Source: Oscillatoria sp. PCC 10802 | GTDB taxonomy: Bacteria; Cyanobacteriota; Cyanobacteriia; Cyanobacteriales; Oscillatoriaceae | NCBI RefSeq assembly: GCF_000332335.1 | Contig: NZ_KB235948.1 | Location: 2,740,513-2,804,512 of the forward strand | Direction: 5' to 3' | Length of the DNA stretch: 64,000 bases | In this document: in pieces, positions 30,668 through 37,273 of the stretch | Layout: every line of letters begins with the position of its first letter | Numbering within the stretch: the stretch's first letter is position 1 | Program-made: the position numbers and the translations under genes | The notes under the pieces: generated by a model | The model's database searches: none | What the model saw: only the letters and a program-made list of their open reading frames with translations | Told to the model about the DNA's origin: nothing

Positions 30668-33334
30668 ATGAAGGGCAGTGAGATAGTCGCTGAGAGTGCG
30701 AGAGAAAGTCCGGGAGTGGCGAGCGGCGTAATTCGCCTGAAGCCCCAGCAGTACATTCACGTTCTGGACAACAACACCGGCGTGACGAGGCTGGAGGTTG
30801 GCCCGCAAACAATTACGCTTCGCGATCACGAGCGTCTGGTCTTAAAACCCTCTCCGATGATAGTTGTGCCGCCCCGCAATTATTGTGCGGTTGCCAATCC
30901 GGTTCTCCGGGATGAGGAAGGCTCGCCGATTGCCGACCGGCACGGACAAATTAAACTGCGCTACGGCGATCGGGAAATTCGCTTCGCGCAAGAGCCTTTT
31001 CCCCTGTATCCGGGGGAAGCGCTGGAGCAAGAGGTGACGCGCTTGCACGTTGTGGAGACAAATCAAGCGCTGCGTTTGAGAGCGATTCGGGATTTTTCGG
31101 AGGCGGTTGCGGTGACGGTTGATGGCGAAACCGAGACTCAAATGATTAACCGTATCGCCGGCGATGAGTGGCTGTTTGAGGGACCGGGAACTTATCTCCC
31201 CCGGGTGGAAGTGGAAGTGCTGGAAACTGTGGCGGCTACGGTGATTAAACCGAACCAAGCGTTGCGCTTGCAGGCGCGGCAGAATTGCACGGACCGGCTG
31301 GGAAACCGCCGGCGTGCCGGTGAGGAGTGGCTGGTGAGAGAAGAGGGAGCCTATTTGCCCGGGGTTGATGAAGAAGTGGTTGCCATTGTTAAGGCTTATG
31401 TCCTGACAGAGCGGAAAGCGCTGCACTTGAGGGCGAAACGCACGTTTACTGATATGTTTCGCCGGCAGCGGAAAGCGGGCGATGAGTGGCTGGTGACAAT
31501 CTCGGATGCAGAGATACACATTCCCGATGTCTATGAAGAAGTGGTGGGAGAAGTTGGGATTACGACGCTGGGCGATCGGGAGTGGTGTATTGTGGTCGAT
31601 CCGATTGGTGAGGATGGCAAGCCGCAATTAGGAAAGCGAGAGGTCCGCCAGGGGAGAGCGTCTTTTTTCTTGCATCCGGGCGAGTCGCTGGAAGGGGGGA
31701 TTCAAAAAGTCTATGTTCTGGGCGAGCGGGAAGCACTTTTGCTGCGAGCGAAAGAAGCGTTCAGTGAGGGTGAGGGCGACAGTGAGGTCGAGCGCCAGCC
31801 TGGAGATTTGTGGATGATTTCCGGTCCGCGAGATTATATTCCCCGCGTGGAAGTGGAAGTGGTTGAGCGGCGAAAAGCAATTCCTCTGGATAAGAATGAA
31901 GGGATTTATGTGAGGGATATTCAGACCGGCGAACTCAGGCTGGTGAGCGGTCCGCAGGCTTATATGCTCAGCCCCTATGAGGAACTTTGGGAGAAAGAGC
32001 TGCCGCCGGTTGTGGAGGAGTTGCTGGCGCTAAAAATCGATCCGGTTTCTGAGCGCAGTCAGAGTCACAGTACAGGGGGTTCCGAGCCGGTGCAAAAATC
32101 TGGAGCCTCGAAACCTGTCGCTAAACGGGATAAAACTAGGGCGGTTGTGTTTCACGTCCCGCAAAATGCAGCGGTGCAAATCCACGACTATAAAGACAGG
32201 ACCGCCCGCACTGTATTTGGCCCGGATTTGGTGATGCTCGGACCTGATGAAGCATTTACGGTGCTGAGTCTGTCAGGGAGCAAGCCCAAGCGACCGAATG
32301 TGATTAAGTCGCTGGCTGTATTGCTGGGGCCAGATTTTATGACGGATATTTTCACGGTGGAAACATCAGATCACGCCAGACTGCAGATGCAGCTGTCGTA
32401 TAACTGGTATTTTGATGTGGATAGAGCGAATGAGGGGGCGGCGGCAAAACTGTTTCAAGTGCCGGATTTTGTGGGGGATGCGTGCAAGGCGATTGCGTCT
32501 CGGGTGCGGGGCGCTGTGGCGGGGGTGCCCTTTGATGAATTTCACCGGAATTCTGCCCGGATTATCCGTCAGGCTGTGTTTGGAACGGATGCGGAAGGTC
32601 ACGTTCGCGATGAATTTCGGTTTCGGGCGAATAATTTGGTGATTACGAATATTGACATCCAGTCGGTGGAGCCGGTGGATGAGCGGACTTTGGAAAGTCT
32701 GCAAAAGTCGGTTCAGATTGCGATTCAAATTACTACAGATGCGCAAGAAGCGGCGGCGAAGCGCGATGCGGAACGGATTGAGCAAGAGGCTAAAGCTCGG
32801 CTGGAACGGCAGATTATTGTGGATAAGGGTGCGGCTGAGCTAGAGCGGAAAAAGCTGCTGGAATTCCAGGCTGAAAATGCGGCGATTCAGTCTACGGGAC
32901 AGGCGATTGCGGAGGCGAGGGCGAAGGCGGAAGCGGCTCGGATTCAAGGGGAGTTGGCGGTGAATCTGGCGCAGCAAGAAGCGGAGGCGGCTCGGATTCG
33001 GGCTGAAGCGGATCTGGCGCAATTGCGAGCGCGTCAGGAGGCGGAGCTGGCTCACCAGCAGGCGCTGGTGAATTTGGAGATTGACAAGGCTGAGCGGATG
33101 GCTGAAATTACCAGTGCGGAATTCGCGCAGAAAGTTGCGGCAATTGGGCCGGAAACGCTGAAAGCGATGGCTCAAGCAGGACCGGAAATGCAGGCTCGGC
33201 TCCTGCAAAGTCTTGGACTTCAAAGTGTGCTGATTACTGATGGGAAAAATCCGATTAATCTGTTTGGCGCTGCTAGCGGTTTGATCGGTTCGGTGACGCC
33301 TCCGCTGAGTTCGGAGTCGCAGCGCGGGGGTTGA
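30668..33334 (+). CDS. Major vault protein (MVP) homolog, full length: MVP repeat domains, SPFH-like shoulder and a coiled-coil cap helix.
   Basis: About 55-aa tandem repeats with (A/T)GDEWL(F/V)...GPG.YLP...EVEV. Motifs [66 protein letters not shown] match eukaryotic MVP as I recall it. Strong SD GGGAGG upstream. Confidence 0.85.
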
Positions 33335-33463
33335 GTTTTTGGGTGGGTTACGCTGTGGCGTTCCCCACCCTGCTCTTAACCCACCCCACTCTATATAGTG
33401 GGCTCCGCACGCGCACCTGTTCAGTCCAGAATCAGGCAAAAGTCCCAGCTGCAGCACAGGACT

Positions 33464-35379: not shown

Positions 35380-37273
35380 CGGTAAAAGCGGACATCACCC
35401 GCCTCAAGACGTGCCATTACCTCCCACCGGCGACAGTGGGATCTTTGACCCGCTCTCTGTAGAATCGCTCGCGAATCAGCTTTATAGCGCTTTGCCAAAT
35501 GGGAGCGGCGTCGCAGCCCCAGCCGGCACCCAGCCGGCAGTGGAAACTATCGGGACTGTTGCGCCGTCTGAAATCAATAGTTCTGGCATGAGTGGGGTGG
35601 CATTAGTGGGGAACTCCGCACCGGCACCAGCCCTCAGCGAGGACGCATTAACCGCAATGGCCAAACAGTTGCGAGCGCAGATGCTTCCCGCTAACCTGGA
35701 AACTAACGTGTTTCAGGCATTCGCACAGCTGGAACCCGCCGCACCTTCCGGCGAAACGGCTGCTGCTCTGCCCACAACTTCCGCTTCCAGCGATGCCTTG
35801 AATGTGGAAACTTTGAAAGCGGTGGCACAGCAGCTGTACGCCCAGATTCCCCAGATTTACCCCAGCGGAATTCCGGGCAATTCGATTCCCGCGCCTCCAA
35901 GGCCAACTTCTATTTTACCGCTCAGCGAGCCCGATTTGCAAAGGGCTTTCGCGGATGCGGGAGCGCAAGCCAGCCAGAAGCCGGTGCGGGAAACATCCCA
36001 GCCGTCGTTCTATTTCCTGTCTCCCCCAGCAGTGGAAAACCTAGGGTTACAGTCGGGGGCAATTTTTGATGTCAGCGCCATCCGCAAAGACTTTCCGATT
36101 TTGCACCAGAAAGTCAACGGCAAACCGCTGATTTGGCTGGATAACGCCGCCACAACTCAAAAGCCGCAAAGCGTTATCGATGCTCTGTCGCTGTTCTACC
36201 AGCGAGACAACTCCAACATTCACCGAGCAGCCCACACTCTGGCGGCGCGTGCGACGGATGCCTATGAAGGAGCGCGGGAGAAGGTGCAGCGGTTTCTGGG
36301 TGCGAGTTCGTCGTCGGAAATTATCTTCGCGCGGGGAACCACCGAAGCGATTAATCTGGTGGCGCAAACCTGGGGTCGCAAGTACATTCAGCCCGGAGAT
36401 GAAATTGTTCTCTCGACGCTGGAACACCACGCCAATATTGTTCCGTGGCAAATGCTGGCGCAAGAAACGGGAGCAATTTTAAAGGTTATTCCTGTTAGTG
36501 AGCGCGGGAAAATTCTGCAAGAGGAATACGCCCGACTCTTGGGACCGCGCACTCGCATCGTTGGGATCACGCAGGTTTCTAACGCTCTCGGAACCATCGT
36601 TCCAGTGCGGGAGATGACGCAAATCGCCCACCGGCACGGGGCAGTCGTCCTGGTTGACGGGGCGCAGGCTGTCTCTCACATGCCGGTGAATGTTCAAGAT
36701 ATCGGCTGCGATTTTTACACCTTTTCTGGTCACAAACTCTTTGCGCCAACAGGAATTGGTGTCCTGTACGCCAAACGGGAAATCCTGGAGGATATGCCCC
36801 CGTGGCAGGGTGGCGGAAACATGATTCGCCATGTGACGTTCGAGAGAACGATTTACAGCGATCCCCCGGCAAAATTTGAAGCGGGAACGCCTAATATTGC
36901 GGATGCGGTTGGACTGGGTGCGGCGATTGACTATATCACCCGCCTGGGGATGAGCAATATCGAACGGTACGAACACCAGCTCACCGAGTACGCAATGGGA
37001 CGCCTGGCGCAGATTCCGGGGTTGCATCTGATTGGTACGGCACCGCACAAAGTCAGCGTGCTGTCGTTTATTCTGGATGACATCCCTGTGGAACAAGTTG
37101 GGCAGCGCCTCGCCCGAGAAGGGATTGCGGTGCGTGCCGGTCATCACTGCGCTCAACCGACGATGCAGCGGTATAATCTGACGGGTACGGTTCGGCCTTC
37201 ACTGGCTTTTTACAACACTTGTCAGGAAATCGACACGCTCGTAGAAGTCCTGCGGACTATTCGCTTCCGCTAA
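35354..37273 (+). CDS. Cysteine desulfurase (SufS-like class V aminotransferase) with an Ala/Pro/Ser/Gln-rich disordered N-terminal domain of about 230 aa. Presumed encapsulin cargo.
   Basis: [12 protein letters not shown]-Lys motif FSGHK, active-site Cys region RAGHHCAQP. The start overlaps the encapsulin stop by 26 nt. Confidence 0.85.

Follow-up and report, generated by a model that had tools for sequence, protein, structure and literature searches.

A major vault protein (MVP) homologue and a Family 2B encapsulin shell with its cysteine desulfurase (CyD) cargo are encoded side by side in Oscillatoria sp. PCC 10802. We analysed the 64,000-nucleotide stretch of contig NZ_KB235948.1 that carries them, here called the window. 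The best reading is that both systems are of known kinds and that their adjacency is a lineage-specific juxtaposition: very probably, they are two independent systems that became neighbours by chance, through the way in which genes happen to be arranged at this place in one Oscillatoria princeps-like lineage. A sequence-only reading of the same DNA had proposed that vault and encapsulin are co-regulated or functionally linked, while conceding that their adjacency could be accidental. The proposed link finds no support, as a single shallow clade has the two systems side by side, and comparative genomics favours the accidental origin. The main value of the result is negative: the idea of two organelles in one locus is unsupported, and what appears to be the true unit, a five-gene sulfur cassette, is defined in its place.

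The junction consists of the following features, numbered from the first letter of the window:

30668-33334, + strand: MVP homologue, 888 amino acids (aa); Pfam domains and alignment to solved MVP chains
33335-33933, + strand: MVP-encapsulin spacer, 599 bp; distal part variable and repeat-rich, proximal ~190 nt conserved
33934-35379, + strand: Family 2B encapsulin shell protein, 481 aa; NF041163, PF19307, PF00027
35354-37273, + strand: encapsulin cargo cysteine desulfurase, 639 aa; NF041166, TIGR01979

The open reading frames (ORFs), Pfam and NCBIfam bore out all the identities, coordinates and strands assigned earlier to these genes, together with the gap of about 600 bp. The CyD gene overlaps the shell gene by 26 nt.

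Gene neighbourhoods of the two systems

We examined MVP loci in one genome per species, with flanks of up to 10 kb, which gave 53 listed loci; 49 of these include at least 2.5 kb of downstream sequence and are informative. An encapsulin shell, CyD, cysE and the transporter stand beside MVP in only one of the 53, the O. princeps RMCB-10 locus L001 (JAHHHT010000012.1). Among the loci listed, this assembly is the nearest by MVP (94% identical), and its whole neighbourhood is syntenic with the window at 88-97%. The adjacency is not found at the remaining 48 informative loci. The sequence-only reading had looked to relatives for co-occurring MVP and encapsulin neighbourhoods; at 1 of 49 loci, MVP homologues are essentially never found near encapsulins.

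Clustering all the flanking ORFs of the 53 loci yielded no neighbour common to more than six of them, and the largest clusters were antisense shadow ORFs inside MVP. MVP is best taken as a gene that stands alone, without a conserved neighbourhood. Because it has no conserved neighbour, gene context gives no clue to the function of bacterial MVP.

Two recurrent neighbours were seen at smaller numbers of MVP loci. At four loci, ORFs that join a Ser/Thr protein kinase to a WD40 beta-propeller (~790-845 aa) lie directly upstream of MVP on the same strand, at distances of 112-1156 bp:

L037:609-3128, same strand as MVP: kinase-WD40 ORF
L046:7298-9835, same strand as MVP: kinase-WD40 ORF
L049:6464-8845, same strand as MVP: kinase-WD40 ORF
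L051:7511-9889, same strand as MVP: kinase-WD40 ORF

The loci, two from uncultured bacteria and two from Okeania species, represent at least two lineages, and the pairing does not occur in the window. Since the kinase-WD40 proteins are only ~53% identical between the groups, this pairing is older than the MVP-encapsulin pairing. WD40 propellers are found in TEP1, a component of the eukaryotic vault, as well, but the likeness is generic. At four other loci, an unassigned SufS-like class-V aminotransferase is encoded 0.2-6.8 kb 3' of MVP (L005:14390-15745, L009:12827-14020, L016:7777-9006 and L024:17334-18551, from Allocoleopsis, Coleofasciculaceae, Stenomitos and one uncultured bacterium). Its score is 133 bits against a sufS cut-off of 475, and no encapsulin occurs in these loci. 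We considered it as a signal of sulfur genes near MVP and set it aside as weak, with one clade, variable distances, scores below all curated cut-offs and no encapsulin; it is probably clade-level synteny.

From the encapsulin side, a protein search found five other close loci with shells 71-92% identical to the window's, and MVP is absent beside all five. Four of them (L054, L056, L057 and L059) come from an uncultured 7.6-Mb assembly, Planktothrix tepida, Floridanema aerugineum (L057) and GCA_943367755. Their shells are 71-76% identical; the genes upstream are different ones, among which an Rrf2 regulator and an acireductone dioxygenase are frequent, and no MVP lies within 10 kb. Contig_27210 (7.6 Mb) carries both genes, with MVP near 1.90 Mb and the shell at 2.70 Mb, ~796 kb apart. 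The fifth locus, the metagenome contig L061, has a shell 92% identical to the window's, no MVP and unrelated sequence on both flanks. It is homologous in DNA to the window between positions 33894, 40 nt before the shell ATG, and 39315, at the end of the DUF6691 gene; the one interruption falls in the CyD-cysE spacer and the beginning of cysE. Because the homology is bounded to the cassette while the flanks are unrelated, the five-gene cassette behaves as a portable unit.

We extended the comparison with a metagenome scan that used the shell alignment and returned at least 80 Family 2B loci, all distant (45-63% identical). Among the 80 listed, 53 of which include 3 kb or more upstream, CyD occurs at 57, cysE at 19 and MVP at none.

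All the loci that share the junction have an MVP at least 93% identical to the window's: besides the window, these are L001 and the metagenomic loci L062 and L067/L068. L062 (Ga0436594_000388) has an MVP 93.6% identical to the window's, full upstream synteny and a 959-bp spacer; in L067/L068 (Ga0531547 contigs), the C-terminus of MVP is 95.5% identical and the spacer is 855 bp long. The genes 5' of MVP (NTP-transferase/PGM, methyltransferase, cobK and pentapeptide) are also syntenic in L062 and L067/L068. Because all the flanking genes have been retained as well, descent explains the persistence of the junction and no selection is needed. Across the independent lineages compared, vault and encapsulin do not form a conserved module. 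In the literature searched on MVP with cyanobacteria, bacteria or encapsulins, we found only evolutionary analyses and nanotechnology reviews, and no report of a natural locus with both.

The spacer and the weighing of alternatives

The spacer contains four elements:

33341-33370, + strand: G+C-rich hairpin, 7 nt past the MVP stop codon; dG -23.6 kcal/mol, z = -3.9; no U-tract
33550-33596, + strand: inverted repeat CGCGATAAATCGCC / GGGGATTTATCGCG; dG -28 kcal/mol, z = -4.3
33818-33823, + strand: -10-like TATAAA after T-rich tracts, 111 nt 5' of the shell ATG, identified by conservation
33850-33883, + strand: inverted repeat ACTTAGCT-N18-AGCTAAGT in the presumed 5' untranslated region (UTR) or operator region; weak hairpin, dG -9.8, z = -1.1

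Spacer length varies within the clade, from 599 bp in the window to 1253 bp in L001, 959 bp in L062 and 855 bp in L067. Compared with window positions 33335-33370, L001 has ~650 extra bp after the MVP stop codon (L001:12668-13342), with a near-copy of the GGTGGGTTACGCTGTGGCGTTCCCCACC hairpin at each end, and different insertions occupy the same site in L062 and L067. Since the insertions at this site differ among the three loci, the site just 3' of MVP is a repeat-insertion hotspot. The inverted repeat at 33550-33596 is present in L001 and not in L062, and L067 has several copies of its GATAAATCGC motif. The sequence of the spacer hairpin, checked for dispersal, occurs once in the window.

Across the clade, only the last ~190 nt of the spacer are conserved, comprising the T-rich tracts, TATAAA and the inverted repeat at 33850-33883. 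All four clade members retain the T-rich block, and GGTATAA(A/T) is kept in L001, L067 and the Floridanema locus L057. From this conservation, the ~190-nt block would be the cassette's own promoter and 5' UTR. A CTTAGCT-type inverted repeat recurs ~80 nt 5' of the Family 2B shell ATG in L057, L059 and L064; it may serve as an operator or form a hairpin in the 5' UTR, and RNAalifold did not pick it up. At the other end of the spacer, the hairpin at 33341-33370 is a possible terminator of the MVP transcript. In a consensus promoter and terminator scan, which showed no enrichment over shuffles, the terminator at the end of the operon was called and the hairpin after MVP, which has no T-run, was missed. 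Together, the hairpin after MVP, the variable spacer and the promoter-like block by the shell gene are indirect signs against shared transcription or regulation.

The sequence-only reading had taken the spacer for a structured leader. Its folding held up, with the whole 599 bp more stable than shuffles (z = -3.84), but we found no Rfam match, consensus fold or stable length. It is very unlikely that the spacer is a dedicated, riboswitch-like structured RNA that controls the encapsulin operon. Besides the folding signal, such an RNA would account for the 525-834-bp non-coding gap 5' of the shell gene in four other cyanobacteria and for the recurrence of the CTTAGCT motif. However, no Rfam family matched positions 29400-39500 at E <= 1, none reached its gathering score in the whole window, and RNAalifold gave zero consensus pairs over 10 shell-gene leaders. 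When six leaders were aligned across genera, only A/T-rich tracts and a -10-like GGTATAA box were shared. In L001, L062 and L067, other or longer sequence stands in place of the distal spacer, and L061 shares nothing 5' of position -40. The folding signal arises because the spacer holds a few strong local palindromes or hairpins, and such isolated palindromes are typical of dispersed repeats.

A selected functional module, in which vault and encapsulin respond to a common control such as sulfur starvation or work together to sequester cargo or sulfur, is highly improbable. The two genes do share a strand at a distance of 599 bp, their junction is kept in four assemblies of the clade, the lack of a U-tract in the hairpin after MVP could permit read-through, and the SufS-like aminotransferase 3' of MVP in another clade might be seen as a further tie to sulfur. 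Against these points stand the 48 informative MVP loci that lack the adjacency, the five close and 80 metagenomic encapsulin loci that lack MVP, the separation of the two genes by most of a megabase in contig_27210, the near-identical L061 cassette in an MVP-free context, a spacer free to double in length, and flanking synteny so fully kept that it accounts for the kept junction.

Several points weigh against chance juxtaposition as well. Read-through from MVP may occur, as the hairpin at 33341-33370 has no U-tract, and the consensus promoter scan did not call the TATAAA at 33818-33823. By our estimate, the chance adjacency of a pre-specified gene pair would be expected roughly once in a few thousand genomes, and one occurrence in ~50 lineages is mildly unexpected, though this pair was chosen post hoc. 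The presence of the junction in four assemblies may also be listed here; all the flanking synteny is present in the same four, so that their agreement is uninformative on selection. There is only a slender chance that the juxtaposition was later co-opted in the O. princeps lineage, with read-through or a shared sulfur-starvation regulator joining both systems in one stress response, for which a vault-like barrel and a sulfur-storing encapsulin would be made at the same time; if this were true, no bacterial vault protein would have been placed in a functional context before. An assembly or binning artefact that joined unrelated regions, to which the repeats and palindromes at the junction might point, was rejected and is next to impossible, because four independent assemblies (window, L001, L062 and L067/L068) share the junction with colinear flanks on both sides.

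With chance juxtaposition as the preferred reading, MVP would be a single gene whose transcript probably ends at the hairpin just past its stop codon. The cassette most likely has its own promoter ~110 nt 5' of the shell gene and would end at the hairpin and U-rich tail at 39335-39373. It most likely landed 3' of MVP, or came there by rearrangement, in the ancestor of the clade. The junction would then have been inherited by descent, while repeat insertions and deletions changed the spacer.

A separate palindromic repeat, GAAACCGGGTTTC, is dispersed through the window, often in back-to-back pairs (27 matches against 0.38 expected). Two of its copies, at ~30211-30242 and ~30554-30585, flank a 313-nt segment in the 580-bp region 5' of MVP, and a degenerate copy lies in the CyD-cysE spacer. 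Copies are found at:

1441-1473: GAAACCGGGTTTC copy
14664-14694: GAAACCGGGTTTC copy
30212-30242: GAAACCGGGTTTC copy
30554-30584: GAAACCGGGTTTC copy
37396-37408: GAAACCGGGTTTC copy
40027-40057: GAAACCGGGTTTC copy
52016-52047: GAAACCGGGTTTC copy
52447-52459: GAAACCGGGTTTC copy
53599-53629: GAAACCGGGTTTC copy

The encapsulin sulfur cassette

Judged by sequence and gene order, the true unit is a five-gene sulfur cassette at 33894-39373 that comprises the shell, CyD, cysE, Sulf_transp and DUF6691 genes. The sequence-only reading had ended the locus at 37273; CyD does end there, but the operon continues through cysE, Sulf_transp and DUF6691 to 39319. Beyond the shell and CyD genes, its features are:

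37538-38383, + strand: cysE, serine O-acetyltransferase; TIGR01172 251 bits against a cut-off of 211
38402-38830, + strand: Sulf_transp (YeeE/YedE-type) half-size membrane protein, 142 aa; PF04143 33.7 bits
38873-39319, + strand: DUF6691 protein, 148 aa, last cassette gene and partner of Sulf_transp; PF20398 6e-44
39335-39373, + strand: terminator-like hairpin and U-rich tail at the end of the encapsulin operon; terminator scan, dG -23.3 kcal/mol, z = -4.5

The order shell, CyD, (cysE), Sulf_transp, DUF6691 is kept in other cyanobacteria whose shells are 71-79% identical, with cysE sometimes absent. At the same position as in the window, cysE occurs in L056, L057, L059, L061 and L067, and Sulf_transp orthologues 78-94% identical occur in L001, L054, L059, L061 and L064; the position of the DUF6691 gene is likewise conserved among the relatives of the cassette.

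The shell protein scores 596.3 bits with NCBIfam NF041163, whose cut-off is 400, and covers 1-449 of its 450 profile positions. Its HK97-type SrpI-like domain occupies residues 215-471 (PF19307, 386 bits), and a cyclic nucleotide monophosphate (cNMP)-binding-fold insertion occupies residues 110-195 (PF00027, 73.9 bits). Because this insertion is present, the shell belongs to Family 2B and not to Family 2A. Its best structural relatives are the solved Family 2B shells 9bje, 9bix and 9bhu (386-422 bits), and it matches SrpI (6x8m) at 378 bits.

When excised, the cNMP-binding-like domain matched the cNMP-binding domains of PKG and PKA at 84-94 bits, which is unusually close. Its phosphate-binding cassette (shell residues 158-173) aligns to PKG FGERALLYDEPRSATI, with Ser in place of the cNMP-contacting Arg. 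This Arg is reported to be lost in nearly all Family 2B shells, where Trp is typical, and data on a Streptomyces Family 2B shell are in line with no binding of cyclic AMP (cAMP; PMC11550324). The loss of the Arg is shared by the window shell, whose domain probably does not bind cAMP. The domain would be displayed on the outside of the shell.

CyD scores 813.4 bits with NF041166 (cut-off 800; residues 27-635) and 567 bits with the sufS model TIGR01979. Its SufS-type catalytic domain spans residues 236-636 and is preceded by ~235 aa of low-complexity, Pro/Ala/Ser-rich sequence with three LA-x-QL-type repeats and SFYFLSP. These motifs resemble the loading motifs LARLANEFFS and AASPYYFLDG of the CyD associated with SrpI (PMC8049743). 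The adjacent SufS-type desulfurase with a long, disordered N-terminal loading domain is as expected of a cysteine desulfurase (CD) operon, and cysE supplies its frequent, non-obligatory accessory, a serine O-acetyltransferase and/or rhodanese; Pfam found no rhodanese domain in any ORF of the operon.

The loading domain (residues 1-235, 35354-36060) is highly variable in length among close relatives. Among the window (639 aa), L064, L057, L054 and L067, total CyD length runs from 571 through 599, 639 and 697 to 740 aa. For the O. princeps clade, identity is only 70-75% in the N-terminal part, and in L067 it is ~92% over the rest of the protein.

By analogy with the Family 2A desulfurase encapsulins, the disordered N-terminal domain of CyD would load the enzyme into the HK97-fold shell. 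This shell would have icosahedral T = 1 geometry. Inside, CyD would strip sulfur from cysteine, with storage as elemental sulfur possible, while cysE would supply the cysteine precursor and the Sulf_transp and DUF6691 membrane pair would probably move a sulfur compound. Loading, desulfuration, storage and transport are each predicted from family membership. Only for Family 2A systems has it been shown that the shell assembles, that it encloses its cargo and that sulfur limitation brings about induction (PMC8049743, PMC10836720): in these, sulfur starvation induces the operons, sulfur can accumulate inside the shell, shielded from cellular reductants (PMC10836720), and the solved desulfurase shell is ~24 nm across. 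The literature consulted described no experimentally characterised Family 2B desulfurase system. With its Sulf_transp/DUF6691 pair and its Ser at the cNMP contact, the cyanobacterial cassette is a clean study candidate for Family 2B desulfurase encapsulins.

Two sets of genes beyond the cassette were also observed. In other lineages, represented by L061 (6943-9129) and L064 (4788-6983), the next gene after the cassette, also on its strand, encodes a ~730-aa fusion of a pyridine-nucleotide-disulfide oxidoreductase and a metallo-beta-lactamase, which we take to resemble persulfide dioxygenase and which the window does not have. In the window, two large convergent ORFs follow:

39363-43097, - strand: 1244-aa ORF with a P-loop/STAND-like NTPase region and Helicase_C
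43278-46304, - strand: 1008-aa ORF with no Pfam match

PADLOC gave no meaningful match to either of them.

The vault protein and comparison with known systems

The window MVP is a full-length homologue of major vault protein. All its vault-repeat matches in Pfam exceed their gathering scores (Vault 7e-69 in 4 stretches, Vault_2 6e-38, Vault_3 2e-33, Vault_4 9e-17), placing tandem vault repeat domains at its N-terminus, and MVP_shoulder (5e-55) covers residues 554-671. HMMER aligned residues 19-875 in one piece to residues 5-851 of solved MVP chains (1014 bits), with 480 of 836 aligned positions identical to solved mammalian MVP (57%); a separate match joins residues 777-875 to a 140-residue MVP fragment. 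In rat MVP, the C-terminal region forms the cap helix and cap ring, and in the window protein the shoulder is followed by a region colinear with this part. For both proteins, the fold assignment is settled by the similarity of their sequences to solved structures (E = 0 for MVP and 3e-125 for the shell).

Because of the full-length identity and the earlier modelling of cyanobacterial homologues, which were judged capable of docking (PMC3762200), the window MVP most likely assembles into a vault-like barrel or shell; the vault particle itself is a barrel of 78 subunits. In the literature searched, we found no report that demonstrated particle assembly for a bacterial MVP. Within the window, nothing in Rfam, which includes vault RNA, scores above gathering level, and no TROVE or PARP domain, as expected of the partners TEP1 and vPARP, occurs among the 19 window ORFs scanned with Pfam.

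A protein search returned 2594 MVP homologues with E <= 1e-5. The best 120 of these, which are the ones listed, are 76-94% identical to the window MVP, and those with organism names are nearly all from filamentous cyanobacteria. We also observed homologues 67-75% identical to cyanobacterial MVP among giant or filamentous sulfur bacteria at L031, L034 and L039 (Thiotrichaceae, Thiomargarita and Parabeggiatoa) and among filamentous Chloroflexota at L032, L033, L036, L043 and L050 (Anaerolineae, Chloroflexaceae and Oscillochloris). Bacterial MVP homologues are thus widespread in filamentous cyanobacteria and present in Thiotrichaceae and Chloroflexota, and the sulfur-bacterial and Chloroflexota proteins widen the distribution beyond the taxa of the 2013 and 2019 papers. 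The distribution suggests horizontal spread among large filamentous bacteria.

Compared with eukaryotic MVP (rat and human; PDB 4v60, 7pkz and 9z4w), the window protein is colinear over the repeats, the shoulder and the C-terminal region. Relative to the solved chains, it has a short insertion of ~11 residues among the repeats and is extended by 18 residues at its N-terminus, and the window differs from a eukaryotic vault system in having no vault RNA match and, among the ORFs scanned, no TEP1 or vPARP. Cyanobacterial MVPs have been described since 2013 (PMC3762200; bioRxiv 10.1101/872010), and those already known include Lyngbya/Moorena F4Y3B4, Oscillatoria acuminata K9TKX8 and Microcoleus PCC 7113 K9WB38 (PMC3762200). 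Like other bacterial homologues, which sources annotate as 'colicin uptake protein', the window MVP is a stand-alone gene.

Among the Family 2A systems, SrpI/CyD of Synechococcus elongatus PCC 7942 (6x8m; PMC8049743) shares the SrpI-like domain, the SufS-type cargo and the disordered loading domain with the window, and the operon of Acinetobacter baumannii (PMC10836720) likewise includes a serine O-acetyltransferase. Unlike Family 2A, the window shell carries the cNMP-binding-fold insertion, and the operon has the Sulf_transp/DUF6691 pair where no rhodanese gene is seen. Gene order also differs, with shell, cargo and cysE in the window and rhodanese, acetyltransferase, shell and cargo in Acinetobacter.

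The Family 2B shell that encloses the 2-methylisoborneol (2-MIB) synthase of Streptomyces griseus (PMC11550324) has the same N-arm, cNMP-binding-domain-fold insertion and HK97 domain as the window shell. The cargo is a desulfurase in the window and a terpene cyclase in S. griseus, the window has one shell gene where S. griseus has two, and the window shell has Ser at the Arg position where most Family 2B shells are reported to have Trp. A further counterpart is the set of 199 Family 2B CD operons catalogued in PMC8346489, a kind described since 2021 in which serine O-acetyltransferase is an enriched accessory. With its CD cargo and serine O-acetyltransferase, the window cassette is of this same type.

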